Source: a virus (taxonomy: Duplodnaviria; Heunggongvirae; Uroviricota; Caudoviricetes). Taken from it: DNA of 20,162 nucleotides. The stretch is taken from IMG/VR virus record IMGVR_UViG_2684623171_000007. One strand, 5' to 3'. The position numbers and the translations under genes are program-made. Position 1 is the stretch's first letter. Every line of letters begins with the position of its first letter. Positions 1,435 through 20,162 of this stretch are shown here, piece after piece. The notes under the pieces were generated by a model. It searched no databases, had not been told where the DNA came from, and was given only the letters and a program-made list of their open reading frames with translations.

Positions 1435-1437
1435 AAC
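1435..1437. repeat. target-site duplication AAC, left copy
   Basis: AAC immediately outside the IS end at 1438; identical AAC at 2748-2750. A 3-bp duplication is typical for IS3-family elements. Confidence 0.75.
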
Positions 1438-1479
1438 TGAACCGCCCCGGGTTTCCTGGAGAGTGTTTTATCTGTGAAC

Positions 1480-2693: not shown

Positions 2694-2747
2694 CCTGTTT
2701 ACCTCTTTCTCAGGGAGTTTAGTCTCCAGGATTTCCGGGGCGGTTCA

Positions 2748-2750
2748 AAC
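2748..2750. repeat. target-site duplication AAC, right copy
   Basis: AAC immediately outside the IS end at 2747; the FI reading frame resumes here. Confidence 0.75.
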
Positions 2751-2928
2751 TGATTGGCGCGGAGTGCTGGTATGACATCGAGGATAACAGCACCACGAAT
2801 TTACGTCAGGGGCGTGTGCGTATTCGCTACAAATATACGCCCGTTCCTCCGCTGGAAGACATGGAGCTTTACCAGTCGTTTACTGATGAATTCTTTGGTC
2901 CCGCATTTGCGGTGCTGGGAGGTGCCTG

Positions 2929-3441: not shown

Positions 3442-3495
3442 TAAGTAATATGCAGGCGGCGCAGTGCGTCGCCTCTGACTGAAAGGAGTTTCCTG

Positions 3496-3861
3496 ATGAA
3501 AGAGACGAAAAACATCGATACCGAAAACACGGTAGTTACTGACACTGTGAAAGAAACCAGTGAGCGTGGTGTAAAACTTACCCAACCAATTGAGCGAGGC
3601 GGCGAAAAAATCACGTATGTGGAGATCACCGGGGCTATTGAGCAGGCTGGATCTCTGCGAGATTTGTCGCTGTCTGATGTGCTGAATCTGAAAGCGGAAT
3701 CCATGTTTACGCTGCTGTCACGCGTGACATCACCGCGACTGGATGAAGTGACGATCAAAAAAATGGCATCCCGTGACTTTATTCAGTTATGTGTGGTTGC
3801 CGTAAATTTTTTGAGCGGTGCGGACTCTGGCGGGAAGAACGAACAGGCGACGGAAGCCTGA
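3496..3861 (+). CDS. E: tail assembly chaperone (P2 gpE-like), zero-frame product
   Basis: ORF track 121 aa; GGAG-type Shine-Dalgarno upstream (GAAAGGAGTTTCCTGATG). Position between the tube and tape-measure genes; contains a TTTTTTG slippery heptamer near its 3' end. Confidence 0.7.
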   Translation: MKETKNIDTENTVVTDTVKETSERGVKLTQPIERGGEKITYVEITGAIEQAGSLRDLSLSDVLNLKAESMFTLLSRVTSPRLDEVTIKKMASRDFIQLCVVAVNFLSGADSGGKNEQATEA

Positions 3862-4025
3862 TCACGGTTGTGTGCTTTGAGCACATAGAAGACTTTGTGG
3901 CAGATATTGCCGTTATTTTTAACTGGTCGCCCGCCGAAATCTTCATGATGACGCCCGGCGAAGTGGTTAGCTGGCGTGAGCGGGCGGCACTTCGCAGCGG
4001 GAATGCAGACAATGAAGACTCTTGA
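3496..4025 (+). CDS. E': tail assembly chaperone E+E' fusion, predicted -1 programmed frameshift product (3496..~3812 joined to the -1 frame ending 4025)
   Basis: Heptamer T_TTT_TTG at ~3807-3813 is in the correct phase in the E frame (codons AAT TTT TTG). The -1 frame (ORF track 3789..4025) is open from the slip site for ~70 codons and ends just inside the start of the tape-measure ORF. The same G/GT-type arrangement and T6G motif are established for the P2 E/E' genes. Confidence 0.6.
3807..3813 (+). other. candidate -1 ribosomal frameshift slippery site TTTTTTG
   Basis: Seen directly in the sequence, phased X_XXY_YYZ in the E reading frame. Confidence 0.6.
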
Positions 4026-6815
4026 TATCCGGGTCGCTTTCAGCGCCGTTGACAGGCTGACCCGACCTGCCGAAAACGCACGCCGCCTGATGGGGCAGTT
4101 TGGTGACTCCATCCAGCGAACGCAGGGGGCGATCAAAAATCTCGAGCGTCAGGCGCGATCATTTGAGCGCGCCCGCGACGCTGTCAGTAAAGCGGATGCT
4201 GGCATCGTGAAAGCACGACGCCAGCTTAACGCCCTTAATCAGTTACAACGCACGGGTACAGTGCTCAGCGAAAAACAACAAAAGCTGATGCAGCAGTTAA
4301 GCACCCGGCTTGAACGCCTGAATGAATCGCGCACACGGGAAATTCAGAAAATGAGGGAACTTGGCGGAGAGCTGAAACGCCACGGCATTTCCCTGACAGG
4401 CAGCGATAACACCATTCAGCAGGCCATCAGACGCACCGAACAATACAACAACCAGCTTGAACGCGAACGGCAGGCGCTTGCGCGTGTAACGCAGGCGCGT
4501 GAGCGGTATTCGCACGCGCAGGAAACCGCGGGAAAACTGAAAACAGGTGGTGCGCTGGCAATTGGTGCGGCAGCGGCGGGCGGCTATGCTGCCGGGCGTT
4601 TTTTGCAGCCTGCGATCGGGTTCGGCAAAGAGATGTCCCGCGTTCAGGCACTGACGCGAATCGACAAAAACAGCCCGCAGTTTAAGGCGCTGCGTGAGCA
4701 GGCGTTAAAACTTGCTGAAACACAGTTTACTGCGAGTGATGCCGCCAGTGGGCAGAGCTTTCTGGCAATGGCTGGTTTTACTCCGCAGGCCATTCAGGCC
4801 GCATTGCCCGGTGTTCTTAATATGGCGCTGGCAGGTGGCGTCGAACTCGGCGAGACGGCTGATATAGGCTCCAATATCCTCACACAGTTCAACCTGACAG
4901 CCGATCAAATGGACCGGGTGGGCGATACGCTGACAGCAGCATTTACCCGGACCAATACTGATTTACGCGCGCTGGGCGAAACCATGAAGTATACCGGTCC
5001 GGTTGCCGCAAAACTTGGTATCAGTCTTGAAGAAGCGGCGGCCATGGCCGGGATGCTTGCCAATAATGGTCTTCGCGGAAGCGATGCTGGCACGGCCATG
5101 CGCGCAAGTCTGTCCCGCCTTGCATCACCGCCAAAAGCTGCGGCTGATGCACTGAAAGAGCTGGGGGTGTCAGTTGCTGAGGCCAGAGGCAAAATGCGCC
5201 CGATGGAGGATGTGCTGCTTGATCTCTATAAGGCGACACAAAAATACGGACAGGTGGACCAGGTCTCCTTCTTCAAGGACATCGCCGGAGAAGAGGCGTT
5301 CGTTGGTTTGCAGACGCTTGTTGCGGCGGCTGGTTCAGGAGAGCTGCAAAAACTGACCAGAGAATTGCAGGGGGCAAGGGGAGAGGCCGATCGCGTCGCA
5401 AAAGTAATGGCTGATAATCTTGATGGGGACCTGAAAAATCTCGACAGCGCATGGGAAGGTCTTCGTATTCGCATCAGTGATCTGGTTGACGGTCCGCTGC
5501 GTTCTGTCACGCAGTGGCTCACGCGGGTGCTTGAAAAAATCACCTCGCTGGCGCAGGCCCATCCGGTACTGACGCGCCAGCTACTGATAGCAGGCGGTGC
5601 GTTGCTGGCAATGACTGCAACGATTGGCTCGTTGTCGCTGGTTATTGGGGTGCTTTACGGGAAGCTGGCCACCCTGCGTCTTGGTTTTGACATTCTTACC
5701 CGGTCAATGAATGTCGTCAGGGTGTTACCTGCGCTATGGGGAATGGTGACGGGTTCCGTTTCTTTACTGGGAGGCGTTATCGGGGCGTTGTTCAGTCCGG
5801 TTGGTCTTATCGTGGCTGCGCTTGCCGGAGCTGCCGTTCTTATCTGGAAATACTGGGATCCTATCAGGGCTTTCTTTGCCGGGGTGTTCAGCGGGATTAT
5901 GGAAAGGCTGACCCCGTTGCGCGACACCTTTGAACGGTTTGGCCCTGTTTTTGACGTAATCGGAAGCGGTTCAGCCAGGTGTTTAACTGGTTTAAATCGC
6001 TGCTGTCACCGATGGAGTCCAGCAAGGAAACGCTGGATAAATGTACCAGTGCTGGCGAGGTATTCGGTAACGTTCTTGGTGGTGCGTTACAGCTTGTTCT
6101 GACGCCTGCAAAAATGTTGCTGGATACGCTGGCGTGGATACTTGAAAAACTCGGTGTGCTTCCGGATGAAGCGGAAAGGGCGCGCAAGAAAATCGAAGAC
6201 GCACAACGTGCGGCCATTCTTCAGGACAAGGTTGCTCTGTTTCAGGGAGACATTGCGAAAATCAATCCGCCGAAGTCTGCGGGAAATAGCAATGGCACCG
6301 GAGATGATAAACCCAAAGACAACAAACCTCTCACAGACAGCAATACCGGCACGCTACGCAGACTCAGCAAAATTGCTGATAACACAGGTAAGCTGGTTGA
6401 TGAGACAAAAAAACGCATTGGCCCCGGCGATATTGTCTTTAAGAACCTGCCCCGCGCACTTGCTGTTCGTGGGGAGTGGCAGGAGCGGAAGATTGCGCAG
6501 GTCAGTAAGCCTGCCCCCGCAATTAATATCACACCCGTGGTCCCGGCTCCGCTGCCTCCGGCGCTGGTCCCTGTTGTTGCGGCCAGCTCCCGCCCGGTGG
6601 TGGAGGCCATACGATCGCCAGTGGCATCAGTTCCTGCAACTTCCCGTAACCGGGAGCCTGTTGCCTCCGGATTTGGCGGTGAAATTCATGTTCATCTGCA
6701 TAACGTTGTTACGCAGAATCCCCGCGAACTGGCGAAACTGGTCGGCGAAATGGTCAGGGCAGAAATGGAACGGCGCGCCCGTGCCAGGCGTGGCAGTTTT
6801 TACGATAAAGATTGA
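3976..6815 (+). pseudogene. T: tail tape measure protein (P2 gpT-like), split into two frames by an apparent 1-bp frameshift near 5966-5980
   Basis: ORF track 3976..6102 (708 aa, GTG at 3976; alternative in-frame ATGs at ~4003 and ~4012) is coiled-coil-rich with a long hydrophobic stretch, as expected for a tape measure. ORF 5979..6815 (278 aa) continues in the -1 frame with no gap. Around GGAAGCGGTTCAGCCAGGTG, one extra T (GGTTTCAGC) would give a continuous ..FDVIGSGFSQVFNWFKSLL.. reading. The C-terminal frame ends 13 nt before the U gene. Confidence 0.7.
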
Positions 6816-6827
6816 GGAGTCATGGCC

Positions 6828-7316
6828 ATGATGATGATCTACGGCATGTTTGTTTTTGAGCTGCGCACGTTGCCGCATCAGCAGTTACAGCAAAACAAAA
6901 GCTGGCGACATGTGAAAAATGAACGCGTTAACCGTTCAGCAAGCTGGCAGTATATCGGTGCAGGTGATGATCGCATCGTTCTTTCTGGTGTTCTTTATCC
7001 TGAGATTACTGGTGGCGAAGTGTCGCTGTCGTTGTTGACCACGCAGGCATATACAGGACGTCCTTGGCCTTTGATTGATGGCGTCGGGCAGATTTACGGC
7101 ATGTATGTCCTGACCGGAACGAATACGACCCGCTCCGAGTTTGATCGCTACGGTAAGGCGAAAAAGATAGAATTTTCACTGACTCTTGAACGCTGTGATG
7201 AGGATTTGCGGGAGCGCCTGCAATCCTCATCGTTCAGCGATATGCTGTCCGGCTTCAAAGATAAGGTGACATCATCCCTTAATAGCGCGGCCAGCTCAGT
7301 TAAGGGGCTGCTCTGA
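6828..7316 (+). CDS. U: tail protein (P2 gpU-like)
   Basis: ORF track 6822..7316. GAGGAG Shine-Dalgarno at ~6814-6819 is best spaced for the ATG at 6828 (MMMIYGMFVFELRTLP...). Motifs YPEITGG and WPLIDGVGQIYGMYVLTG resemble P2 gpU as I recall it. Confidence 0.8.
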   Translation: MMMIYGMFVFELRTLPHQQLQQNKSWRHVKNERVNRSASWQYIGAGDDRIVLSGVLYPEITGGEVSLSLLTTQAYTGRPWPLIDGVGQIYGMYVLTGTNTTRSEFDRYGKAKKIEFSLTLERCDEDLRERLQSSSFSDMLSGFKDKVTSSLNSAASSVKGLL

Positions 7317-7439
7317 TTTAACGTATGTCGCCAATTTCCTGATGAAGGTGACTGGCGACTTGCTGTTGTATGTCCTTCTCAGAAAATTGTTTTTGAATAA
7401 CAAATAACAGGATTTTATAATCTCTTAACCTTATAACAT

Positions 7440-8045
7440 GTGTGGTCTGAAATAATAATTAAGGAGATTATCGTGCTATCTTACTTAATGGCAATTCACT
7501 TTGTTTTATTTGGAAACTCTACTAATTTAAAAAACTTCTGGAAACATGAAGTAATTCGGCGGAAACGTATGGATATCTGGAGGCTTTTAAGAGAGAAAAA
7601 ACAGCGTAACCGGAATTTCCTTTTCTGGTGGCGGTTGGCTAACGAAATGTATATTAATGGTAATAAATTACATAAGAAAGCAGCCAAAAAGTTAAACAGT
7701 AAAATAATTAACAAGTTTGGTTGTGAAATAGGATTGGGCGCAAATATTGGAAAAGGGTTGACAATTCCCCATCATGCTGGAATTGTTGTTCATTTTGCTG
7801 TTGATGCGGGTGAAAATCTGGTATTACGACAGAATACTACCATTGGACAGATAGATGGTGATATGCCTAGTTCAAGAGTAAAAATTGGTAGTAACGTTGA
7901 TATCGGAGCTAATTGTTGCATCATTGGATTATCACGTAAAATTGGGGATAATGTAAAAATAGGTGCAATGTCTTTTATAAATAAAGATATACCATCAAAC
8001 TGCACATATATAACTAAAAAGAGTGGTGTTGTATTGTATAAATAG
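7440..8045 (+). CDS. hexapeptide-repeat (left-handed beta-helix) acyltransferase, serine/sugar O-acetyltransferase-like; low-GC cargo gene
   Basis: ORF track 201 aa. Likely true start is GTG at ~7473 after AAGGAG (MLSYLMAIHF...). Tandem hexapeptide [LIV]-G-x-x-x-x pattern (GCEIGLGANIGKGLTIPHHAGIVVHFAVDAGENLVLRQNTTIGQIDG...VKIGSNVDIGANCCIIG..KIGDNVKIGAMSFI) typical of the CysE/WcaB/LacA acetyltransferase family. The segment 7320-8090 is visibly AT-rich compared with the flanking tail genes. Confidence 0.7.
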   Translation: MWSEIIIKEIIVLSYLMAIHFVLFGNSTNLKNFWKHEVIRRKRMDIWRLLREKKQRNRNFLFWWRLANEMYINGNKLHKKAAKKLNSKIINKFGCEIGLGANIGKGLTIPHHAGIVVHFAVDAGENLVLRQNTTIGQIDGDMPSSRVKIGSNVDIGANCCIIGLSRKIGDNVKIGAMSFINKDIPSNCTYITKKSGVVLYK

Positions 8046-8054
8046 AGTACATAA

Positions 8055-8090
8055 AGCCATCGATATTTCTGTCGATGGCTTTTTCTTTTT
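8055..8090. terminator. candidate bidirectional rho-independent terminator between convergent genes
   Basis: Perfect 9-bp stem AGCCATCGA / TCGATGGCT with an 8-nt loop, followed by TTTTTCTTTTT on the plus strand and preceded by an A-rich run. Lies between the acyltransferase stop (8045) and the tfa stop (8089). Confidence 0.55.
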
Positions 8091-8621
8091 ATTGTGGGGC
8101 GACTGGCCACTCAACATCCGCTGCTACTGTTGTATCAACACGATTCAACAATACCCGATATGTCTTCCATGCAGCCAGTAACGATGCCTCTTCCTCCGTC
8201 GCAATATCCAAATCTACGGCATCCTGAAGTGGCGCAATATGCTCACTGGCTACCTGCATCAGGCTGTTTTTTGTTTCTTCTGCCTCCCGTACCCGAAACA
8301 GTTTTTCTGCTTCTGCATCTTTCGCCCAGGATGTGCCGTTCCACTTCTGACACTCTCCATCCGGCGACAACCAGGTAACATTTTCCGGTAACGGACCGAG
8401 TTCAGAAATAAATAACGCGTCGCCGGAAGCCACGTCATAAACCGTTTTACCCCGATGATCTTCAACGAGATGCCACGATGCCTCATTACTGTTGAAAACA
8501 GCCACGAAGCCAGCCGGAATATCTGGCGGTGCAATATCGGTACTGTTTGCTGGCAGACCTGTATGAGGCGGAATGTATGCGTCACCTTCACCAATAAATT
8601 CATTAGTTCCGGCCAGCAGAT
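8089..8621 (-). pseudogene. tfa: tail fibre assembly protein (Tfa, P2 gpG-like), 5'-truncated by the IS629-like insertion at 8622
   Basis: ORF track 8089..8505 (GTG-initiated) ends ..[30 protein letters not shown], the characteristic Tfa C-terminus. The same frame stays open upstream to the IS boundary (..[45 protein letters not shown]..), matching the internal part of Tfa proteins as I recall them; about 15-20 N-terminal codons and the start codon are missing. Confidence 0.85.
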
Positions 8622-8675
8622 TGAACCGCCCCGGGAATCCTGGAGACTAAACTCCCTGAGAAAGAGGTAAACAGG

Positions 8676-9002
8676 ATGACTAAAAATACACGTTTTTCCC
8701 CCGAGGTCCGTCAACGGGCAGTCCGTATGGTTCTGGAAAGTCAGGGCGAATATGACTCACAATGGGCGGCAATTCGTTCCATTGCCCCAAAGATTGGCTG
8801 TACACCAGAGACTCTGCGTGTGTGGGTTCGTCAGCATGAGCGGGATACCGGGGGCGGTGATGGTGGACTCACCACCGCTGAACGTCAGCGTCTGAAAGAG
8901 CTGGAACGTGAAAATCGTGAACTGCGCCGCAGTAACGATATCCTTCGCCAGGCTTCCGCTTATTTTGCGAAGGCGGAGTTCGACCGCCTCTGGAAAAAAT
9001 AA
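8676..9002 (+). CDS. IS629-like transposase OrfA (copy 2)
   Basis: ORF track 108 aa; differs from copy 1 OrfA at 4 residues (V16, G24, R34, T67 versus I, D, C, S). Confidence 0.85.
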
Positions 9003-9678
9003 TGCCGCTGCTGGATAAGCTGCGTGAGCAGTACGGGGTCGGACCGGTATGCAGTGAACTGCATATTGCCCCGTCAACGGATTACCACTGTCAGCAACAG
9101 CGACATCATCCGGATAAACGCAGTGCCCGTGCGCAGCGCGATGACTGGCTGAAGAGAGAGATACAGCGCGTATACGATGAAAATCATCAGGTGTACGGTG
9201 TGCGTAAAGTCTGGCGCCAGTTGTTACGCGAAGGTATCAGGGTGGCCAGATGTACAGTGGCGCGCCTCATGGCGGTTATGGGACTTGCCGGTGTTCTCCG
9301 GGGTAAAAAGGTCCGTACTACCGTCAGCCGGAAAGCCGTTTCCGCAGGCGACCGCGTAAACCGTCAGTTCGTGGCAGAACGTCCTGACCAGCTGTGGGTG
9401 GCTGATTTTACTTACGTCAGCACATGGCAGGGCTTCGTCTATGTGGCGTTCATCATTGATGTGTTTTCCGGATGTATCGTGGGGTGGCGAGTCTCATCGT
9501 CTATGGAAACGACATTCGTGCTGGATGCACTGGAGCAGGCGTTGTGGGCCCGTCGGCCGTCCGGCACAGTCCATCACAGTGATAAAGGTTCTCAGTATGT
9601 ATCACTGGCCTATACGGAGCGACTAAAAGAAGCAAAACTGCTGGCATCAACAGGGAGTACAGGTGACTCGTATGACAA
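9002..9678 (+). pseudogene. IS629-like transposase OrfB, C-terminally truncated (copy 2)
   Basis: ORF track 9002..9691 (229 aa); the last residues (..DSYDNVFY*) are read from non-IS sequence, so the conserved C-terminal ~70 aa of OrfB are missing. Confidence 0.8.
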
Positions 9679-9710
9679 TGTATTTTATTAGTTCACATAC
9701 AATTATCAGA

Positions 9711-10025
9711 TTATTCTGGGAATAAGGTCTGAATATTCTTTTTTATTTTATAAAAATTGCATTCAACTCCGCTAGGCTGATTAGCCTGGTATGTTTCCTT
9801 GATGCTAACGGTATTGAAGGGGAGGTTGTCCTCTGGCCATTCGGCCATCCAGTAGGCAAATGCTGGGTTGCGCTTTATGAGTGCTAGCCCAGCCAGAAAG
9901 GCCGCGCGTTGCGCGCGGCTGCGTTCGGAGGCTGGCAGGCTATCGAGGTAATTGCACGCCTCCTGTTCACTCTTGACGGCGGCGGGCTTCAGATAGAAAC
10001 TTATCCGTCTGGTTGGTGTCGTCAT
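9711..10025 (-). CDS. parR: ParR/StbB-like centromere-binding partition protein (ribbon-helix-helix)
   Basis: ORF track 104 aa; starts 5 bp after the parM-like stop. N-terminal half (RRISFYLKP...LDSLPASERSRAQRAAFLAGLAL) resembles ParR of plasmid R1 as I recall it (..TIAFKLNP..LDSIPQGERSRLNRAALTAGLAL..). The C-terminal third is divergent and encoded by AT-rich DNA next to the IS junction. Confidence 0.6.
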   Translation of the reverse strand: MTTPTRRISFYLKPAAVKSEQEACNYLDSLPASERSRAQRAAFLAGLALIKRNPAFAYWMAEWPEDNLPFNTVSIKETYQANQPSGVECNFYKIKKNIQTLFPE

Positions 10026-10029
10026 TGGT

Positions 10030-10989
10030 TTACTCCTTGTTCATTGCGTACAACCCATTAACCAGAGCAAACTGTGGCACCCCGTCCGCGATGAAAGTCG
10101 CATTAACTCCGCAGGCTTCGCGGATAGCGGTTGCCACAATCTCCGCCCCGCCACCGACAACCATCACCCGCCCGTAACCCGAAAAAACCGCCAGCGCGCG
10201 GATCACGCGTTGTTTCAGTGTTTCTTCCTTTTCACGAATAACCGCCATCAGGCTGGCGTAATGCGCGTCATTGTGGATGTGCTGGCGCAGCCAGGCTTCA
10301 TCATGGCGATGTTCGATAATGGTATTGGCGATGTGGTGACTGGTGCGCATACCGTTAGTGGCCATCACCGACAGTACGGCATCGGCCATCAGAGAAACGC
10401 CTACGTGTGGATCGCAAAACACCTGGCTGATACCTGCCAGTTGCCCCTGAACCTTTGCCACATCCAGCGTGGTTCCGCCCAAATCCACAATCAGCAGGGA
10501 TTCAAACGGACTCATGTCAGCCAGTGCCTTAAAGCCAGCAGGAATGGATTCAGGCATAACCCGTACGTTACGGATAGTGAATGCTTCGCCGTTCTGGTAC
10601 TCCACCGGGCGCATGACGTTCGCTTTTTTGCGGTTGATGTTGGCCATGTCCGGCTGTGCGTTTGTATCGAAATACTCGCTCAGTGGCAGGGTGACAACCA
10701 CATCCACTTCCTGTGGTGTGATGCCTGATTTGACCAGCGCGTGATGAATGGCAATTACATTCACATCGCTGTACTGGTATTGCGTGTCGGTCGTCTGGAC
10801 AAAGCGATCGCTGACCGGATCAAAACCATAGCGCACGCCATCAAGCATGTAGTTCGCGGGCTGCGTGCCACCGAATGGCGCAGACCATTCCGACTTGAAG
10901 CTGTTCGGGCTGATGGCGTTGCGGCGTTCGCCGTTCTCAGTCCATGCCAGCTTGATGTTGGTGGAGCCGTCGTCGATACAAATTTTCAT
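10030..10989 (-). CDS. parM: ParM/StbA-like actin-type partition ATPase
   Basis: ORF track 319 aa with AAGGA Shine-Dalgarno. Family-defining blocks IDDGSTNIKL, ISPNSF, YQYSDVNVIAIHHAL, MPESIPAG, LIVDLGGTTLD, GVSL, FSGY..VMVVGGGAE and LVNGLY align with R1 ParM/StbA as I recall it. Confidence 0.85.
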   Translation of the reverse strand: MKICIDDGSTNIKLAWTENGERRNAISPNSFKSEWSAPFGGTQPANYMLDGVRYGFDPVSDRFVQTTDTQYQYSDVNVIAIHHALVKSGITPQEVDVVVTLPLSEYFDTNAQPDMANINRKKANVMRPVEYQNGEAFTIRNVRVMPESIPAGFKALADMSPFESLLIVDLGGTTLDVAKVQGQLAGISQVFCDPHVGVSLMADAVLSVMATNGMRTSHHIANTIIEHRHDEAWLRQHIHNDAHYASLMAVIREKEETLKQRVIRALAVFSGYGRVMVVGGGAEIVATAIREACGVNATFIADGVPQFALVNGLYAMNKE

Positions 10990-11023
10990 GTCGCTTTTCC
11001 TTATGTTGATTAATTAATCGGTT

Positions 11024-11132
11024 ACAGGATTTTTAAATCCCGCTTTTGCCTGTTTTGTGCGCGCTTCATATATCGCGGCGCGTTTTTTGCTCATTTACGG
11101 GATTTGTGAGTCCCGTTTCTGTCTGTTTTTTG
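11024..11132. repeat. two ~36-bp direct repeats, each with internal dyad symmetry, upstream of parM (candidate parC-like centromere/operator or tandem hairpins)
   Basis: Copy 1 ~11024-11059 ACAGGATTTTTAAATCCCGCTTTTGCCTGTTTTGTG; copy 2 ~11097-11132 ACGGGATTTGTGAGTCCCGTTTCTGTCTGTTTTTTG (about 27 of 36 positions identical). Cores GGATTT..AAATCC and ACGGGA..TCCCGT are inverted repeats followed by T-rich tracts. Copy 2 lies inside the last ~20 codons of gene A. Confidence 0.4.
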
Positions 11133-13888
11133 TTTCCACTGGTCAGGCCACCCCGCAGCAGGTCTGCTTTGCGGCTGGCGCGTTCAGTGGTTTCACTGAT
11201 TCTCTGTGCGTGCTCTGCGTCGCGGATGGCGCGCAGCATGTCAGAAAGCACGGTAACGGGTGTTTTCATGGTGTTCTGGTCCTGCTGAAGTGTGGATGCC
11301 AGGCGTGCGGCGGCTTCAGGGTCTGATGCCCCCAGCTGTGCCAGATAGCTGGCGACCGGGTTATGGCGGATCTCCGTGCTGCTTACGCCATGATTACGGC
11401 TCAGGCGCTGCCAGAGCTGCGTGATTCGGCTGTCCGGGCGGGTATCCGGTTTGCGTACAATTTCAAATCCCTGCGGTGCAATGATGCTGCCGTCAACGTA
11501 CAGACTGCCGCCCCGTAACAGGTGCTGCATCTGTTGTTCACCGATATGCAGGCCGAGAGATTCAGCAGACTCCCGCCATTCTTTAGCGAGTAATTCGTGG
11601 TTATCAGGCAAAGGCCGCTGCTGTTTGCGGCTCTGTGTCCAGCTCTGCATTTCATCACTGCTGTTTTTTGCCTGTTTGTCACGAAGCGAACGCATCAGCG
11701 CCCGGCGTTCGTGCCGTTTCAGTGAGCGCATCCATTCGTTCACGTCAACGCCGTCAGGAAGCTGCGGCCACGGTGCTGGCCGTTCTTCCGGCTGTTCTGT
11801 CCCGTTGTTGTCCGTTTCCTGTACACGGGGACAGTTATTGCCACGAGTCCAAGGGGCGGCAGGGCCGCCCTGAAGGTCAAAACCATTTTCGCGGGCGCTG
11901 TCTTCTACTCCCGGTTTACGTCTTACCAGCTTCCAGTTATCCGGGTGCGTGCACACACGGGAGGATTCCCCGATGAGTGGTGACCAGATCCCGTAAATCT
12001 GTACGCTCTGTTCGCCGTAATCGTTCAGCTCATCTGCGAGGTCGTAGGCGGTGCGAATCAGGTAGTCCTTGCGTGGAACAAGTACGCCTCCCTGTTTCTC
12101 AATGTAGGTGGTAAAACATCCGGCATCAGCGGCAGCAAGAACCGCATCCATTGCGTCATCCTTCAGCCGTTGCGGGCCTTCCGGGTTGCGTGCCATCTGG
12201 CTGGCAAGGCGACGCAGTTCACGCCACACCTGACGGGAGGGGATGCCAAAGAACTGGAACTGGCGGACCCGGTGAAGGCGCGCCCAGCCAATGGCGCGTT
12301 CCACGCTCTCGGTCATTGATTTTCCGGTTTCGTGGTCAACGCGTGGTTTGCCTGTTTTCGGGTCGATGCCATCCACGGCGCGGCTGTCCAGGTTTTTTCC
12401 GATGTAGGTGGCGATGTAGCTGGTTGGCGTGCCTTTTGAGCCGTCGACATACTCCGCCTTAAAGCGCGGAGTAATATCATCGCCCAGCTCGTGACGATCT
12501 TCCTGAATGGCAATATCGCGGGTGTGGGACACAATGGTGTCGATTTCTTCCGGATGAGCAAAGACCATCATATGCCAGTGCACGGTGCCGTCATGGTGAG
12601 GCTCCACCGTGCGGATGCCATACCAGCGCAGGCCGTCGCGGTTCAGTTTCTTGCGGACCGCCGCAAAAAACGTGTTAACCAGGTAATCGCTGGAGTCGCG
12701 CATGGTGGCCCCGTTCCATTTGGGATTCGGATGACCGTTCTCTGTTGTAGCGTGGTATTTTGACGGGCAGGTGACAGTCAGAAACACCGCTTTGTCGCCA
12801 CGGGCTTCGGCCAGAAGTTCCAGCCCCTTCATGGTGGCCATCATTTCTGCCTTACGGTGAACCGGGTTACTTACTCCCGCGTAATACACTGTCTCGAGAT
12901 CAATCGTGAACCCGTCTTCGTTTTCCAGCATGAAACTTTTCAGGAAATCGCGTGTTTTCTCGCGCTGTGCGCGAAACTCGCTTAACGCGTCCTGGCTCAG
13001 ATAGGGCGATGTTTTTCTGGAAACCAGACAGGCGGCGCGGAGTTGTTCTTCTCTCCACTCGCAACGTAACAGCCACAGTTTGCGTTTCCACCATTCCGCA
13101 CAGGTCAGGCGAAGGATTGCGCCCGGCAGCAGCTCCGTGTCCGGTTCGTTCCTCCGGTCTTTGTCTGTTGTCAGTGCGTCATAATGTGGAGGCATGGCGT
13201 GCAGGTGTAACGCCATGCGGGCCAGCATCTGATACGCCTTCAGCGTTACATCCATGGTCAGTTCGCCATCGGTCGCGCCAAAGCCATCGCAGAGTTTTTC
13301 GAAGGTGCTGCTGAACATCGCCGCCGTCATGGTGGCCAGCGTCTGTATCTGGTGTTTGTTGAGCTGCGGCAGGTAAAGCAAATCGTCCAGGCGTTCGCGT
13401 CCGGCAAGGGAGCGATAACCCTGTGTCAGCCAGCGGTGATCGGTGCGCTCCAGACGTTCGAATATTTTGCGCAGGTTTCCGCGCGCGTAGCGTTCAGCCT
13501 GCCAGCTCTTTTTGCCTTTCTGACGATCGGCTTCCTGTTTTTTGCGCAGGAAGGAGAGGTGGCGAATAAGCGGATCGCGCAGATAGGACGGCAGCAGGCG
13601 CAGCGAGGCCATGGCTTCATCCACCGCACCGCGTGCCTGTTTTCTGGCGTCTCCTGCCAGTGTGATGGTTTTGTCCTGTTTTTCCTGTGCGTCCAGGCTT
13701 TTATTAATCAGGTTGCCCAGCGGCGTTGCGGAGAACGCCGCATCAGCCATTTCCTGGCGGCGCTCGTTCTCTACCCGGTAGGCATCCAGCCAGGAGGAAA
13801 GCGCGGATTCAGGAGCGGGGATCCCCGTTCCTTCACGCCCCACTGCGTGGCGCGGTTGTTGCCAGTCCCTGATGTACTCTGCCGTCAT
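11066..13888 (-). CDS. A: replication initiation endonuclease (P2 gpA-like, HUH rolling-circle initiator)
   Basis: ORF track 940 aa. Contains an HUH-type motif (DGTVHWHMMVF) and a downstream tyrosine motif (TPTSYIATYIGKNLDS), the arrangement established for P2 A-family initiators. Sits at the distal end of the early operon as in P2. It is longer than P2 A as I recall it (~760 aa), so the real start or C-terminal tail may differ. Confidence 0.8.
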   Translation of the reverse strand: MTAEYIRDWQQPRHAVGREGTGIPAPESALSSWLDAYRVENERRQEMADAAFSATPLGNLINKSLDAQEKQDKTITLAGDARKQARGAVDEAMASLRLLPSYLRDPLIRHLSFLRKKQEADRQKGKKSWQAERYARGNLRKIFERLERTDHRWLTQGYRSLAGRERLDDLLYLPQLNKHQIQTLATMTAAMFSSTFEKLCDGFGATDGELTMDVTLKAYQMLARMALHLHAMPPHYDALTTDKDRRNEPDTELLPGAILRLTCAEWWKRKLWLLRCEWREEQLRAACLVSRKTSPYLSQDALSEFRAQREKTRDFLKSFMLENEDGFTIDLETVYYAGVSNPVHRKAEMMATMKGLELLAEARGDKAVFLTVTCPSKYHATTENGHPNPKWNGATMRDSSDYLVNTFFAAVRKKLNRDGLRWYGIRTVEPHHDGTVHWHMMVFAHPEEIDTIVSHTRDIAIQEDRHELGDDITPRFKAEYVDGSKGTPTSYIATYIGKNLDSRAVDGIDPKTGKPRVDHETGKSMTESVERAIGWARLHRVRQFQFFGIPSRQVWRELRRLASQMARNPEGPQRLKDDAMDAVLAAADAGCFTTYIEKQGGVLVPRKDYLIRTAYDLADELNDYGEQSVQIYGIWSPLIGESSRVCTHPDNWKLVRRKPGVEDSARENGFDLQGGPAAPWTRGNNCPRVQETDNNGTEQPEERPAPWPQLPDGVDVNEWMRSLKRHERRALMRSLRDKQAKNSSDEMQSWTQSRKQQRPLPDNHELLAKEWRESAESLGLHIGEQQMQHLLRGGSLYVDGSIIAPQGFEIVRKPDTRPDSRITQLWQRLSRNHGVSSTEIRHNPVASYLAQLGASDPEAAARLASTLQQDQNTMKTPVTVLSDMLRAIRDAEHAQRISETTERASRKADLLRGGLTSGNKKQTETGLTNPVNEQKTRRDI

Positions 13889-13894
13889 AGTGAT

Positions 13895-14260
13895 TTACTT
13901 CGTCATGCCATTCAGGGTGTCGCGGCAGGCTGTAGCCAGCCGCTGAATTTCCAGCACGGTGTCTTCTGTGTCGGCATGGCGATGTGTGATGCGGATGCTG
14001 TCGGCAATCACATCGACGATTGCAGAGGATGGGCGCTGGTAAATGCCAATAACGGACGGGGTGCCACCTTCAATGCGGTAAAGCCTGTAATTTCCCTCGT
14101 GGCTGTCAATCATGTAGCGACCATCAATAACAATCTTTCCGTCAGCGAGCTGCGGTACAGGCAGGGATTTCAGGTACATGTCATAACGATCACGCACGCG
14201 AGCGGCAAGATCACGTTCTGTGTTGAGCAGGTATTCAAGAAAGTCGTTGGCGAGAATCAT
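13895..14260 (-). CDS. hypothetical protein (early operon, immediately upstream of A)
   Basis: ORF track 121 aa, same strand and tightly spaced with A; no family recognised by eye. Confidence 0.45.
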   Translation of the reverse strand: MILANDFLEYLLNTERDLAARVRDRYDMYLKSLPVPQLADGKIVIDGRYMIDSHEGNYRLYRIEGGTPSVIGIYQRPSSAIVDVIADSIRITHRHADTEDTVLEIQRLATACRDTLNGMTK

Positions 14261-14332
14261 TGCGGCAATCCTCTTGTTACAGATGTGCGAAGGCCTCCCG
14301 CCGCAAGGTGCAGGAAAGGCCCGGAACAGGAA

Positions 14333-14563
14333 TTAATGGAGTTTGTTTTGCTGCTGGATGAGCTGTTGAAACTCGTGCAGATCATCCGCCAGATAGCTGA
14401 AAACAGAGGCGGAATAAATGTTTGATAGTGCGTGGCTGCGCTCATGCAGCATATTGATGTGCATGATTTGCGCGACGCGTGATGCGCGGGAAAGTCTGCG
14501 GTTGATTTCAGTCTGGATGTGACGACGCTCCGCGATAGCGCGGTGCTGTTTGCGGTCTGCCAT
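14333..14563 (-). CDS. hypothetical small basic protein (76 aa)
   Basis: ORF track; AAGAGG Shine-Dalgarno about 8 nt upstream of the ATG. Preferred over the overlapping 205-aa ORF 14257..14874, which has low-complexity composition. Confidence 0.4.
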   Translation of the reverse strand: MADRKQHRAIAERRHIQTEINRRLSRASRVAQIMHINMLHERSHALSNIYSASVFSYLADDLHEFQQLIQQQNKLH

Positions 14564-14740
14564 GGTGTGGCCTCTTTGCTCGGTGATAGAAATAACTCAC
14601 CATCCAGAGTTGAGAATCTCGGGGTGGCGAGACGTACAGGGTTCTCAACACCGGAGAGCAAAGAATCCGGCCCGACCGAAGTCGGCCCCGTACGCCCCGC
14701 CATAATTCTGACGCGAAAAAGACGTGGCAATACAGTACGC

Positions 14741-14764
14741 ACAAAAAAACCGCTAGCGCGGTTA
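14741..14764 (-). terminator. candidate rho-independent terminator on the minus strand
   Basis: On the minus strand: 6-bp stem AACCGC/GCGGTT with a 4-nt loop, followed by TTTTTTT (plus strand reads ACAAAAAAACCGCTAGCGCGGTT). Confidence 0.4.
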
Positions 14765-14835
14765 TGCGCTTTGCTCTGTATCGGGTTGAGAATCCCGGCA
14801 CCCGTTTTATGAGGTGCAGCGGAAATGTAACCTGA

Positions 14836-14864
14836 CCGATTGCGGCATGGCAAGCGGTTTTTTT
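14836..14864 (+). terminator. candidate rho-independent terminator on the plus strand (antisense to the early operon)
   Basis: CCGATTGC-GGCATG-GCAAGCGG (8-bp stem with one mismatch, 6-nt loop) followed by TTTTTTT. Confidence 0.4.
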
Positions 14865-14885
14865 GTGTGTGCATGTTCTGGTTTC

Positions 14886-15185
14886 TTACTGGTTCAGAAA
14901 AAAATCAAAAACGTTATCGATGCGTTGCAGCAGCTCTTGCTGCATTGCTTCCGGCGTTTCCGGTTCGCCAGGTGCCCCCAGCGTTGCGCAGAAATCAGCG
15001 ATTTCATGATGGAGCGTGAGGCGAATGGCAGGAGCCGTGGTTCTGGCGTGCTCCAGCTGATCCAGCAGTGCCAGCACAGCAGACGGCGAGAGCATTGCGC
15101 GAAATGCCAGTAATTTTTGAGGCGTTGCCATTCGTTGCAGGGCAAATGCCAGTTCGCGTAGCTTCTGGTGGTTGATGGTGCTCAT
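14886..15185 (-). CDS. hypothetical protein
   Basis: ORF track 99 aa; 4-bp overlap with the upstream ORF 15182..15448 suggests an operon. Confidence 0.45.
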   Translation of the reverse strand: MSTINHQKLRELAFALQRMATPQKLLAFRAMLSPSAVLALLDQLEHARTTAPAIRLTLHHEIADFCATLGAPGEPETPEAMQQELLQRIDNVFDFFLNQ

Positions 15186-17205: not shown

Positions 17206-17409
17206 TTAGCTGTTAGCCAAAGCGTCTTTTAACATCGCCACAAGGTTTACTTCAGGCTTTTCCATTTTGGCGCGTTTGGGGCGGATAATAATTCGACCGT
17301 CAGCCAACATCTTTTTGCATGTATTAAGAGGGATACCTGTTATCTCTGCATATTTCTGCAGGGATACATAGGGGGCATTCACATTGATATTGATGGTTAT
17401 ACCTGACAT
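17206..17409 (-). CDS. Cox/excisionase-like small HTH protein
   Basis: ORF track 67 aa. The segment PYVSLQKYAEITGIPLNTCKKMLADGRIIIRP resembles the P2 Cox segment as I recall it (IPYQEFAKLIGKSTGAVRRMIDKGKLPVI). Second gene of the early operon. Confidence 0.5.
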   Translation of the reverse strand: MSGITININVNAPYVSLQKYAEITGIPLNTCKKMLADGRIIIRPKRAKMEKPEVNLVAMLKDALANS

Positions 17410-17425: not shown

Positions 17426-17632
17426 TCAGGAAGATTTGTTTTGTTCTTTCTGGGTTAGCTCTAGGCCGCGAAGGGAGATCATGCGCGCCATGTTAGAGGA
17501 TGAGCGTTGTTCTTTAGCTGCCATTTCATCAATGACGGCTCGCTCCTCGAGGGACAGCCGAAGTGCCAGTCTTGGACCTGTGGCGGTGTTACGCGGAATG
17601 CGTGATCTGGTATCGTGAAGAACTTGTTTCAT
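17426..17632 (-). CDS. ribbon-helix-helix (Arc/CopG-like) DNA-binding protein, first gene of the early operon
   Basis: ORF track 68 aa; the pattern PRLALRLSLEERAVIDEMAAKEQRSSSNMARMI fits a beta-strand followed by two helices as in RHH repressors. Immediately downstream of the divergent promoter region. Confidence 0.5.
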   Translation of the reverse strand: MKQVLHDTRSRIPRNTATGPRLALRLSLEERAVIDEMAAKEQRSSSNMARMISLRGLELTQKEQNKSS

Positions 17633-17707
17633 AGTGGTATATTGTGATCATCTAATAGCTCGTGAAATCATTTTGGTATCAAAAAAGATACCTGTCAAGG
17701 TTTTTGT
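17633..17707. promoter_or_regulatory. divergent promoter/operator region between the repressor gene and the early operon
   Basis: 75-bp intergenic region between divergent genes. Contains the perfect inverted repeat GGTATC-AAAAAA-GATACC (~17675-17692) next to a consensus TTGACA -35 hexamer on the minus strand (~17693-17698), plus TATATT/TAATAG -10-like hexamers. Confidence 0.5.
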
Positions 17708-18112
17708 ATGAAAAATGATATTGGTCGGCGGTTGCGTGAGGAAAGGGAAAGATTGGGACTTAGTCAAGTTGCCATGAGCGACATTGGTGGAGTCAAAAAG
17801 CTAACTCAGCTTAGATATGAGAAAGGAGATAGCTTTCCTGATGCTGCGTATTTGGCAGCGCTGTCTCGTTTTGGCCTTGATGTTCAGTATGTTGTGTTGG
17901 GAATTCACTCACCTGAAACTTATAACGATGATGAGCAGGAATTGATTACTCGCTTTCGAGCAGCTTCGTTAGATGTGAAAAACGCGGTGATTGGGGCTTT
18001 AAAAGGTGCGATCAGTGAAAAGGAAACTCAGCCATCAGGACGTGAGTTAAATATTTCTGGTGGTAATAACCGTATCGCTGGTCGTGACTATAACGAAACT
18101 AAGGGTAGGTGA
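17708..18112 (+). CDS. XRE-family HTH repressor (P2 C / 186 CI-like immunity repressor candidate)
   Basis: ORF track 134 aa. N-terminal Cro/C1-type HTH (IGRRLREERERLGLSQVAMSDIGGVKKLTQLRYEKGDSFPDAAYLAALSRFGLDV); divergent from the early operon and on the integrase strand, as in P2. Confidence 0.7.
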   Translation: MKNDIGRRLREERERLGLSQVAMSDIGGVKKLTQLRYEKGDSFPDAAYLAALSRFGLDVQYVVLGIHSPETYNDDEQELITRFRAASLDVKNAVIGALKGAISEKETQPSGRELNISGGNNRIAGRDYNETKGR

Positions 18113-18127
18113 TAGTAGGGAGGTGAC

Positions 18128-18778
18128 ATGGCCGTCAACTCAAACGGTTCAAACAATCGCGTTGCTGGGCGTGATTTTCACGAAAAGAATATTCAGATAG
18201 AGCGATATGATGGTTCTCATACCGTCAATATCGCAATCCCTTCGAATAATGATGATGACGATCGCCCTTTGCTTAAGGCTCAGCGTAAGGAGCTAAATAG
18301 CTTGGTTGCTGCTATTGCAGAAGCTAGCAATACTGAAGCGTTTATTATTTGGCAAAAAGTACATGCGGAGATTGGTGTAGCTGGTATTGATGATATGACA
18401 GTAAATCAATATAAAACAGCGGAGAGTTTTCTGCATGCAATGCTTGAGCGATGTAAAGATCATGATGCCTGTAAGGCTCTTGTAAGTTTATTACTACGTA
18501 ACAGTGAAGACTGTGGACTTCGACAAAAACTTCTGCGGTATTGCCATATCAATTTCGGTACAGGACGTTTAAACGATCTTACTCGTTCTCAGTTACAGTC
18601 TGCATTGTCGTGGTTAGAGCAACAATCGGCATCAAGCCACATAGAGAGTTCGACCTTACCAGAAGTCCGACTTCGTGCTTCAGAATTAATCCGACTTTAT
18701 CCAAAAGAAATAATATTCTTTATCTGCGTAGGGGTTTTGGTAGGCGGTGTCATTTCTAGGGCGTTTTTTAATTTGTAA
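18128..18778 (+). CDS. hypothetical protein with a C-terminal transmembrane anchor (cargo between repressor and integrase)
   Basis: ORF track 216 aa; GGGAGG Shine-Dalgarno 6 nt upstream. C-terminal hydrophobic segment IIFFICVGVLVGGVISRAFF. N-terminus repeats the motif found at the repressor C-terminus (GSNNRVAGRDFHE versus GGNNRIAGRDYNE). Confidence 0.55.
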   Translation: MAVNSNGSNNRVAGRDFHEKNIQIERYDGSHTVNIAIPSNNDDDDRPLLKAQRKELNSLVAAIAEASNTEAFIIWQKVHAEIGVAGIDDMTVNQYKTAESFLHAMLERCKDHDACKALVSLLLRNSEDCGLRQKLLRYCHINFGTGRLNDLTRSQLQSALSWLEQQSASSHIESSTLPEVRLRASELIRLYPKEIIFFICVGVLVGGVISRAFFNL

Positions 18779-18807: not shown

Positions 18808-19155
18808 ATGAAAGTAAAAAAGGTTCAACTATTAGTTACTTTTTTATCTATGTTTTCTTTTTCCGCCGTCGCAATGCCTTTTAAAACTATTGAACGTGAG
18901 AGTTTCAATGGGGTATGGCCATTTAATACTGATGAGGTTCAATTACAGTGTCTTGATGGTAATCCTTATGTGATGAATTTTGACGATAATAAGTTATATG
19001 CACTTACAGGTTTGGCTCGAATAAAAGGTAAAACATTTGGTGCGTTACCGTTAGATAACAATAATCCATTTTGGCTAGATAATGATGCCGCCCCAGGGTT
19101 AAAAAAGAGTCTGGGGGATGTCACTAAGGCTGCATTTGATTTATGTGATAAGTAA
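18808..19155 (+). CDS. hypothetical secreted/periplasmic protein with predicted signal peptide
   Basis: ORF track 115 aa; N-terminus MKVKKVQLLVTFLSMFSFSAVA looks like a Sec signal peptide. Mature part has two cysteines and is encoded by AT-rich DNA. Confidence 0.55.
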   Translation: MKVKKVQLLVTFLSMFSFSAVAMPFKTIERESFNGVWPFNTDEVQLQCLDGNPYVMNFDDNKLYALTGLARIKGKTFGALPLDNNNPFWLDNDAAPGLKKSLGDVTKAAFDLCDK

Positions 19156-19160
19156 CTAAA

Positions 19161-20162
19161 ATGTCGGTTCGTAAGATTCCATCAGGTAAATGGCTTTGTG
19201 AATGTTATCCCTACGGGGCATCGGGAAAACGCATTCGTAAACAGTTTGCGACAAAAAGTGAGGCGCTCTCTTATGAGCGCCGTTTAATGAATAGTAGAGT
19301 TGGAGACGAGTTTCAAGATGGTTCTGGTTCTCGTCTTTCTGAGTTGATTGCTCGTTGGTTTGAGATGTACGGTAAAACCTTGTCCTCTGGTGCAGAGCGC
19401 AAAGTCAAACTTGAGGCGATTTGTTCCAGGCTGGGAGATCCATTTGCTTCTCAGTTTGACAAAAATATGTTTGCTACTTATCGGGAAAGAAGGCTATCAG
19501 GAGAATGGAATCCCAAGGGGAAGAAAAAACTTAGTGAAGCAACCGTTAATCGCGAGCAGTCATATCTACATGCTGTTTTTGCCGAACTGAAGCGCCTTGG
19601 GGAGTGGTCTGGTGAAAACCCCCTGACTGGTATTCGCAAGTTTCGTGAGGAAGAAAAGGAACTGGCGTTTCTGTATGTAGATGAGATTGAACGCCTTCTG
19701 ATTGCGTGTGATGAGTCACGGAATAAAGATTTGGGGGTTGTTGTCCGTATTGGGCTTGCGACTGGTGCTCGGTGGAGTGAAGCAGAAGGATTAAAGCAAT
19801 CTCAAGTACTGCCCGGTCGAATCACATTTGTTAAAACTAAAGGAAAGAAGAACCGCACTGTACCGATTTCACCTCAATTGCAAGCTATGCTTCCTAAAAA
19901 ACGAGGAGCGCTATTTTCACCATGTTATGAGGCTTTTGACGCTGCAATTAAGAGAGCGAAGATCGAGCTTCCTGATGGGCAATTAACTCATGTGCTACGT
20001 CACACGTTTGCCAGTCATTTTATGATGCGGGGTGGAAATATTCTTGTGTTGCAAAAAATACTGGGGCATAGCGATATAAAAATGACTATGCGTTATGCGC
20101 ATTTTGCTCCAGGTCATTTAGAGGCTGCTGTTGAATTGAACCCTTTTGACAATAGAGGGTAA
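19161..20162 (+). CDS. int: tyrosine recombinase, phage integrase (P2 Int family)
   Basis: ORF track 333 aa; the catalytic-domain signature ..ATGARWSE.. / HVLRHTFASHFMMRGGNILVLQKILGHSDIKMTMRYAHF contains the conserved R, H-x-x-R and Y of tyrosine recombinases. The stop codon is the last triplet of the window, so any attachment site lies outside. Confidence 0.9.
   Translation: MSVRKIPSGKWLCECYPYGASGKRIRKQFATKSEALSYERRLMNSRVGDEFQDGSGSRLSELIARWFEMYGKTLSSGAERKVKLEAICSRLGDPFASQFDKNMFATYRERRLSGEWNPKGKKKLSEATVNREQSYLHAVFAELKRLGEWSGENPLTGIRKFREEEKELAFLYVDEIERLLIACDESRNKDLGVVVRIGLATGARWSEAEGLKQSQVLPGRITFVKTKGKKNRTVPISPQLQAMLPKKRGALFSPCYEAFDAAIKRAKIELPDGQLTHVLRHTFASHFMMRGGNILVLQKILGHSDIKMTMRYAHFAPGHLEAAVELNPFDNRG

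Follow-up and report, generated by a model that had tools for sequence, protein, structure and literature searches.

Why should a temperate phage end its repressor with a short peptide and then open the neighboring gene's membrane protein with the same one? The question is raised by a 20,162-nucleotide stretch of DNA (the window; IMG/VR virus record IMGVR_UViG_2684623171_000007), which, judged by its sequence, is a P2/186-like prophage remnant of Escherichia coli O157:H7. In it, the open reading frame (ORF) of an XRE-type helix-turn-helix (HTH) repressor ends ..ELNISGGNNRIAGRDYNETKGR, and the protein of 216 amino acids (aa) encoded immediately downstream, here called the partner, begins MAVNSNGSNNRVAGRDFHEKNIQ. 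The motif is real, lies at the terminus of both proteins, is maintained at the protein level, is matched by class between neighbors, and is combined with different membrane partners across phage families. As read from these sequences, peptides that match and change together suggest that the lysogeny switch is tied directly to the cell membrane, by a connection not described before.

Residues 114-130 of the repressor and residues 3-19 of the partner are identical at 10/17 positions and positive at 15/17 (BLASTP, E = 3e-5). The best ungapped 17-mer match scores 62, compared to 23.5 ± 3.7 (maximum 42) when both proteins were shuffled (n = 2000; z = 10.4), and 0/2000 shuffles reached 62. The peptides and both ORFs are thus as the original prediction described them; its span of 18058-18200 takes in most of the exact segments, but these lie at 18047-18097 and 18134-18184 on the plus strand. 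The DNA had been described as diverged, and 30/51 nucleotides of the matched segments are identical (59%), with different codons at 6/10 of the identical motif residues. The partner has a degenerate second copy of the motif at about residues 26-38 (YDGSHTVNIAIPS); a second N-terminal copy occurs in many partners and is clearer in relatives (e.g., ..NRAAGRDFHEGNIQVDQLIGRDVLNITIP at locus L004). In almost every repressor, the motif is followed directly by a short terminal stretch rich in Lys/Arg (18098-18109 in the window; also loci L002-L161 of the survey below), such as ..NENKK, ..GKSKE, ..GGSKRKK, ..VGRKKK, or ..TKGR, which has no counterpart in the partner N terminus and might act as a degron or touch DNA or lipid.

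The check named by the original prediction was a search for the motif in other phage repressors and their neighbors. Across 161 related loci, comprising the surroundings of repressor homologues (80 genome loci and 80 viral-contig loci were fetched), the C-terminal 40 residues of the repressor were compared with the N-terminal 45 residues encoded by ORFs that begin shortly after it, and a peptide was scored as shared at a score of at least 33 that also exceeded all 20 shuffles of the same tail. A terminal peptide proved common to 60 of the 113 non-redundant repressor/next-gene pairs. In these 60 pairs, the match has a median length of 17.5 residues, ends a median of 4 aa from the repressor C terminus, and starts a median of 2 aa from the partner N terminus. 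The paired genes are collinear and mostly -4 to +34 nucleotides (nt) apart, often with a 4-nt overlap, and their frame and spacing vary. Tail-less repressor homologues (many of them chromosomal Pseudomonas regulators followed by a response regulator) had no matching neighbor in the surveyed loci.

Relative to the remainder of the proteins, the shared peptide is enriched 2.5-fold in Gly (15.8%) and 3.7-fold in Asn (12.2%) and depleted to 0.1-fold in Leu, with hardly any Pro, Trp, or Cys, and is built from short hydrophobic/polar runs split by glycines, as in VNVS-G-x-G-NRVA-G-RDYNE. Its sequence differs widely between loci and yet agrees between neighbors: a Jeongeupia pair of non-AGRD type has ..YGNAQIGQASAGDIVNK in the repressor and ..FGGAQIDQAAAGDINNY in the partner, and the corresponding peptides are KQVFHGQVGQ.. 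and TQIFRGQVGQ.. in Bordetella, QQFNGPVGSVTSGDVVNQ and QQFNGAVEQVAAGDIKNF in Pseudomonas, IFNGDISGQFAGNQIINN and EFNGTAQGQFSSRDIINI in Pectobacterium, and GQIAGGNIY and EQIAGRDIY in Gilliamella. At locus L064, both proteins contain a RHIM-like G-phi-Q-phi-G core (SVQVG and NLQVG).

Selection on the peptide, rather than a recent duplication, had been proposed as the reason for this likeness. Over 583 identical motif residues in the 60 pairs, the same codon is used in 43% of cases, compared to 44% expected from independent draws from each pair's own codon usage, and the median nucleotide identity of the matched segment is 59%. Synonymous codons are independent and residues are kept; therefore, the similarity is maintained by selection at the protein level, as had been proposed. 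The codon analysis, including the six differing codons in the window, rules out gene conversion or recent duplication. Read-through or fusion of the two ORFs was likewise rejected, as three consecutive stop codons separate them in the window and frame and spacing differ elsewhere. Absence of the motif from homologues of either protein would have pointed to chance, according to the original prediction. Instead, the motif is nearly invariant among 29 partner homologues from Escherichia, Klebsiella, Serratia, Erwinia, and others (58-96% identical), in which MxVNSxGxxNRxAGRDFNE is among the best-conserved parts and residues S5, G7, N10, R11, D16, and E19 are invariant. The tail is also conserved in enterobacterial repressor homologues, which end VNVSGxGNRVAGRDYNExKK; more distant homologues have other G-rich tails, or none.

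The key comparison asks whether the two ends vary together. Tails were clustered into 22 classes with one pair kept per class; cognate pairs averaged a score of 45.3, compared to 24.7 for non-cognate pairs, the neighbor was the best match for 14/22 tails, and 0/100,000 permutations of partners reached the observed total. Across 23 representative pairs, tail similarity follows similarity of the partner N terminus (Spearman rho = 0.51) but neither that of the repressor core (rho = 0.12) nor that of the partner body (rho = -0.05); the partial correlation between tail and N terminus is 0.51, which 0/5000 Mantel permutations reached. Repressors with closely similar cores bear different tails, each with a matching neighbor. 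Phage B3 has a distant repressor core (a similarity score of 0.35 to that of locus L002, and 34.5% tblastn identity to the window repressor) and shares the AGRDF class with the E. coli prophage, but there the motif is paired with an unrelated protein with two transmembrane (TM) helices (GISVTGDGNRTAGRDFHE and IEVTGSNNIVAGRDFIE). Co-variation that is independent of both globular parts and of host taxon favors recognition of peptide by peptide over a shared processing or docking factor, and this modularity speaks against binding of the tail to either folded domain. The functional connection between repressor and membrane protein that had been suggested from the window thus gains support from homologues that keep the motif and from a motif class that co-varies between neighbors across distant lineages.

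Both peptides are predicted to be disordered. The repressor label is upheld by the profile matches in Table 1 and by the immunity position of the gene. The HTH covers residues 1-65; in the AlphaFold2 (AF2) model it is confidently folded at residues 5-64, two helices follow at 74-105, and the tail (about residues 106-134) is coil throughout at low confidence; the predicted local distance difference test (pLDDT) score of the monomer exceeds 90 for residues 11-60 and is below 50 for residues 105-134. In the partner model, pLDDT is below 50 for residues 1-19 and 35-38, the means of 10-residue blocks are at most 54 up to residue 40, and the N terminus contains a single 5-residue helix (residues 15-19; pLDDT < 50). 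A helical cytoplasmic domain (residues 50-173), a short linker, and a TM helix (residues 192-215) follow. The membrane-protein label also stands, on one C-terminal hydrophobic helix; with that helix at one end and the motif at the other, the partner is a tail-anchored protein whose motif lies at the far cytoplasmic end. That both peptides fall below a pLDDT of 50 beside confidently folded domains counts in favor of direct pairing of disordered termini.

The partner matches phrog_5825 over its full length (E = 8.5e-103), and PF27202 (Flk_N) is precomputed on its cluster representatives. Residues 37-166 match the N-terminal part of Flk (NF007987, E = 8e-16), but at 58.2 bits, compared to an equivalog cut-off of 353. 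By these profile matches, the protein is a member of the Flk_N family but not Flk itself. Like the partner, Flk, a flagellar regulator of Salmonella and E. coli, combines a cytoplasmic Flk_N domain with a C-terminal tail anchor; the Flk model has 339 positions, in contrast to the 216 aa of the phage-borne partner. Flk has been placed among the tail-anchored membrane proteins of E. coli (PMC6794478). Chromosomal Flk is not known to have an N-terminal G/N motif or a repressor as its neighbor. The Flk_N family is small (138 representatives at E ≤ 0.001 among 1.84 billion proteins), and its cytoplasmic domain seems suited to binding other proteins and does not resemble a toxin, with a fold resembling the C-terminal domain of Red-beta, a binder of peptide tails. 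Some close relatives of the Flk_N partners (P0387 and P0392) carry a precomputed PF06252 match instead of PF27202, and the same three-helix unit is repeated in Rha/Ant-like phage proteins P0350 and P0378; Flk_N therefore seems to be part of a wider set of phage regulatory helical modules. In the window, exactly 87 nt (29 codons) separate one motif copy from the other, in the same frame, so a deletion between them would create an in-frame HTH-Flk_N fusion. A natural fusion of this kind was sought and rejected: there is none among the 138 representatives, none of which has room for an N-terminal HTH, and the two outliers are P0350 and P0378.

We therefore turn to what such a pair might do, and propose that it forms a two-gene immunity module of temperate phages, consisting of an XRE master repressor and an adjacent, downstream, co-operonic membrane protein. 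The extreme C terminus of the repressor carries a short, G/N-rich peptide, predicted to be disordered, and the extreme cytoplasmic N terminus of the partner presents the same peptide. The two would recognize each other directly, like with like, probably through a shared β-sheet. The membrane-anchored partner could then capture or co-assemble with the repressor, so that part of the repressor pool would be tied to the inner membrane; the membrane protein would thereby influence how much repressor is free and, through that, the lysogeny switch. The partner may thus modulate the repressor from its membrane tether, most likely by antagonizing it, as an anti-repressor does. On balance, we consider it probable that a direct peptide-peptide link couples the repressor to the membrane protein and regulates the lysogeny switch. 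Physical binding, its β-sheet geometry, the direction of signaling, and the effect on repression are inferred.

The antagonist role follows the logic of SinR/SinI (also SlrR/SlrA) in Bacillus subtilis, where the C-terminal self-association element of an XRE repressor is copied in the product of an adjacent gene, which binds and antagonizes the repressor. The module described here likewise has an XRE repressor and an adjacent gene whose product copies its C-terminal element. In contrast to the helical hooks and the small soluble SinI, however, the peptide copied here is G/N-rich and non-helical, a TM helix anchors the partner, and the two systems are not homologous. In phage λ, the cI-rexA-rexB operon provides a membrane protein that is co-transcribed with the repressor in lysogens, but CI and Rex share no peptide and there is no homology to the present pair. 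The outcome may resemble that of the Mlc repressor, which is sequestered at the inner membrane by PtsG, although that system relies on another recognition principle, is not phage-borne, and has no matched peptide. Literature searches aimed at the module yielded no description of it, nor of the function of B3 ORF20 or BcepMu gp18.

Several observations weigh against direct pairing as a complete account. G-rich tails without a detectable partner occur at eight loci (L151, L152, L156, L158, L160, L026, L028, and L031), so the tail probably also works without a partner, perhaps in self-association of the repressor. Conversely, three Pseudomonas prophages have a Flk_N partner behind an XRE repressor without a G/N tail, and therefore the peptide pair is not the sole way in which the two proteins are associated. 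Inside the large AGRD class, the top score does not single out the cognate partner, so specificity is demonstrated at the level of the class only. The loci are also phylogenetically related, so the permutation figures overstate independence. Lastly, the direction of the proposed antagonism is a guess.

The three Pseudomonas prophages with tail-less repressors are BcepMu-like (L162, 2543-3744; L164, 2508-3654; L165, 2558-3672). In these, the Flk_N partner opens with a helix (DDRLAKLAEMLK) that is weakly like an internal helix of the repressor (AERLARIVDLLE), and L165 has parallel changes in the two (PRLTQITDMLE and EKLNKISTRLA). The helix scores of 16-28 in the three loci are not significant alone, but the likeness may be a helical, SinI-like version of the matched-element idea.

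An alternative hypothesis, which is a special case of direct recognition, is amyloid-type signaling, in which the oligomerized side templates the cross-β fold of the motif on the other. Templated aggregation driven by the membrane protein would switch off the repressor and lead to induction; alternatively, the state of the repressor would trigger a membrane-damaging effector, leading to abortive infection. The pair shows the signature by which such motifs have been discovered, namely, placement at the C terminus and N terminus of the products of adjacent collinear genes with tiny or negative spacing (10.1101/2020.01.06.895854; Ibarlosa et al., 10.1101/2024.11.07.622273), as in HET-S/NWD2, the Bell/NLR pairs of BASS1-10, and the E. 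coli Bab/Agp pair of BASS11. Spacing in those systems is short or overlapping, with 57% of motif gene pairs at most 10 bp apart (Dyrka et al., 10.1101/2020.01.06.895854), and is likewise short here (15 nt in the window). As judged by composition and monomer models, the length of the motif (~17-25 aa), its Gly/Asn enrichment, its hydrophobic stretches broken by Gly, its depletion of Leu, Pro, Trp, and Cys, and its disorder are all compatible with an amyloid motif, as are the several orthogonal classes, the tandem N-terminal copies in some partners (as in HET-S), and the RHIM-like core on both sides at L064. One partner in known pairs acts on membranes, and the small two-TM partners here resemble membrane effectors. 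The Bab/Agp pair works in an E. coli prophage (10.1101/2024.11.07.622273).

The differences from those systems are also considerable. Known pairs join an NLR or TGP sensor to a Bell or HeLo effector and sit in defense hotspots; here, an XRE repressor is joined to a Flk_N, two-TM, or one-TM membrane protein in an immunity operon, with no NLR/STAND or TGP sensor and no Bell, HeLo, TIR, or CHAT effector. The orientation is reversed, with the membrane protein bearing the N-terminal copy, and charged residues (R, D, and E) abound in the main class. Seven tails and N termini had no match at E ≤ 10, and the whole proteins had no match to a motif family at E ≤ 0.1, in a search of Pfam, which includes the RHIM, PP, sigma, and HET-s models, and not of the BASS1-11 profiles. 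Neither Dyrka et al. nor Ibarlosa et al. mention HTH, XRE, or repressors, and the Dyrka et al. preprint describes NLR-like architectures as rare or absent in Proteobacteria and found no Bell domains there (10.1101/2020.01.06.895854). We regard as possible, though rather unlikely, a new family of functional amyloid (prion-like) motifs in which cross-β assembly at the inner membrane switches the repressor off or the repressor triggers an effector.

The remaining explanations are less well supported than direct pairing. One is that the module resembles a toxin-antitoxin or addiction system, in which a harmful membrane protein is neutralized by the disordered tail of the repressor and loss or inactivation of the repressor kills the cell or excludes phages. 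The gene order (HTH gene first, partner second, often with a 4-nt overlap) and the disordered C-terminal tail correspond to the layout of HTH antitoxins, many partners are small membrane proteins, and the module is intact in a prophage degraded by insertion sequence (IS) elements and a frameshift and is present in 525/5426 complete E. coli genomes. However, the tails of known antitoxins do not copy the terminus of the toxin, the Flk_N domain resembles a protein-binding module and not a toxin, and the proteins matched no PADLOC defense or toxin model and no Pfam toxin family. This account is improbable, and a known defense system was rejected for want of any PADLOC match.

Less probable again is mimicry, in which the tail docks on a globular domain (the repressor core or the Flk_N domain) and the second copy competes for that site. 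The orphan tails suggest an intramolecular or self-association role, and the fold of Flk_N resembles the tail-binding C-terminal domain of Red-beta, but tail class is uncorrelated with either the repressor core or the partner body, and one class is paired with unrelated partner bodies. It is very doubtful that both peptides are read by something else in the cell (a host protease, a chaperone, or a lipid surface, for instance) as a shared degron or processing site. Both peptides are terminal and disordered, and the Lys/Arg-rich ends of the repressor tails recall C-terminal ClpX recognition signals. Yet several motif classes occur within Pseudomonas, within Gilliamella, and within Pectobacterium, and one class spans E. 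coli, Pseudomonas, and Oleiphilus; several classes within one host genus and one class across several orders argue against a host-encoded reader such as a protease, for which neighbor-specific co-variation would also be unexpected. Resemblance by chance, or as a neutral remnant left when a gene was split or partly duplicated, might draw on the reading frame shared by the window ORFs but is refuted by the shuffles, by conservation on both sides, by synonymous sites that are randomized where residues are kept, by the variable frame and spacing among loci, and by the lack of an HTH-Flk_N fusion among the 138 representatives.

Partner bodies vary widely across the survey, yet almost every one is a membrane protein whose cytoplasmic N terminus bears the motif: Flk_N tail-anchored proteins of 190-230 aa, small proteins of 140-195 aa with two TM helices (including B3 ORF20), and longer proteins of 260-325 aa in which a single TM helix is combined with a small C-terminal domain containing Cys (BcepMu gp18 among them). 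The TM helix is lacking in a few partners (L053, L051, and KS10 gp12). In the long type, the C-terminal domain lies beyond the single TM helix and has a conserved C-x-[FY]-x-G-x-x-[YF]-x-[VL]-G-S-[IV] signature and a second Cys (L011, 4423-5400; L017, 4402-5322; L038, 4411-5193; L138, 2962-3771; proteins P0332, P0346, and P0366), and may be a periplasmic sensing or binding domain. At L122 (3402-3758), a 118-aa partner has an AGRDY motif followed directly by two CxxC pairs (zinc-ribbon-like) and then two TM helices; from its sequence, this is another case of the motif grafted onto a different body.

The module occurs in two kinds of temperate phage. In Enterobacteriaceae and Aeromonas it is found in P2-like prophages with a related integrase, and in Pectobacterium, Bordetella, Gilliamella, and Pseudomonas it is found in BcepMu/B3-like transposable prophages, adjoining an rve transposase and a DUF3102 protein. 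Named phages with the module are B3 (ORF18/ORF20), BcepMu (gp17/gp18), KS10 (gp13/gp12), and Escherichia phage 520873.

Over the stretch tested, the window itself matches the chromosome of E. coli O157:H7 at 100% identity, and similar sequence is present in roughly one in ten complete E. coli genomes. The annotation of strain PA20 (O157:H7) describes the region as a P2-like prophage remnant with a tRNA cluster on one side and yecA on the other, containing tail genes, IS30 and IS3 insertions, a frameshifted tape-measure gene, ParM-like genes, and a replication endonuclease. The part at about 1-14900 of the window (L001, 2600-17500) is a degraded prophage, with the IS30 insertion adjoining a truncated gpD, the frameshifted tape-measure gene, and an IS3 fragment, yet the immunity module is kept intact. 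The same part carries a serine O-acetyltransferase moron and ParM-like and partition genes, which are unusual for a P2-like phage.

Four closely packed genes on the plus strand encode the repressor, the 216-aa partner, a DUF2511 protein, and the integrase (Table 1), and Arc-like and Cox-like genes diverge from the repressor gene on the minus strand, heading to the replication gene. Together with the PA20 annotation, the phrog matches give a P2/186-type immunity layout, with the repressor first, the integrase last, and a divergent Cox-type early operon. Its place at the head of the operon, divergent from the Arc-like and Cox-like genes, therefore puts the 134-aa protein at the position of the P2 C and 186 cI immunity repressors. 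The gap between the repressor gene and the partner gene holds a strong Shine-Dalgarno sequence 4 nt ahead of the ATG, and a site scan found no promoter-like or terminator-like site between the two genes. An imperfect inverted repeat at 17667-17719 (arms 17667-17685 and 17701-17719, 74% complementary, holding GGTATC-AAAAAA-GATACC) lies between the divergent repressor and Arc-like genes, overlaps a promoter-like site on the minus strand (17698-17670), and is a candidate operator. Opposite the Arc-like gene, RefSeq calls a 45-aa ORF on the plus strand (17481-17618; L001, 20082-20219); given that the minus strand encodes a 68-aa Arc-like protein with a strong phrog match, this call is probably wrong.

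Table 1. Features of the immunity region, in window coordinates
Feature	Position	Strand	Basis
XRE-family helix-turn-helix immunity repressor, 134 aa	17708..18112	+	ORF; HTH_31/HTH_3; phrog_8, RstR/DicA-like; synteny
Repressor C-terminal tail motif LNISGGNNRIAGRDYNE, residues 114-130	18047..18097	+	BLASTP, shuffle test, homologue conservation
Gene junction: stops TGA TAG TAG (18110-18118), Shine-Dalgarno GGGAGG (18118-18123)	18110..18127	+	Sequence reading
Tail-anchored membrane protein, 216 aa, Flk_N family (PF27202, phrog_5825)	18128..18778	+	ORF, profile matches, AF2 model
Partner N-terminal motif VNSNGSNNRVAGRDFHE, residues 3-19	18134..18184	+	BLASTP, shuffle test, 29 homologues
Cytoplasmic helical Flk_N domain, residues ~45-168	18260..18631	+	
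C-terminal transmembrane anchor, residues ~190-215	18695..18772	+	Hydropathy scan; AF2 helix 192-215
DUF2511 protein, signal-peptide-like N terminus, operon gene 3	18808..19155	+	PF10709 E 2.3e-6; phrog_2950
P2-type tyrosine integrase, 333-aa ORF reaching the last base of the window; final operon gene, adjoins yecA	19161..20162	+	
Arc-like small repressor, gene 1 of the divergent early operon	17426..17632	-	phrog_3431 E 4e-27
Cox-like excisionase/repressor	17206..17409	-	phrog_575 E 1e-27

Matched terminal motifs in adjacent genes are a known principle; the functional setting and the partner domains are new. The master repressors of P2-like and B3/BcepMu-like phages are not known to be cleaved after DNA damage, and the natural trigger of their switch is poorly understood. 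The module offers a lead on that switch, in the form of a conserved immunity-operon partner tied to the repressor by a co-evolving peptide tag, and it is open to study in the culturable phages B3, BcepMu, KS10, and Escherichia phage 520873, as well as in E. coli prophages, including that of O157:H7. The ~22 motif classes, which look orthogonal to one another, might also be put to use as compact, transferable tags for pairing proteins. If direct pairing holds, matched terminal motifs of adjacent genes, known from immune NLR/effector pairs, would be extended to the control of transcription and to Proteobacteria. If the amyloid version were true, P2-like and Mu-like (B3 and BcepMu) phages would provide the first case of amyloid signaling in control of a transcription factor and of the choice between lysis and lysogeny.

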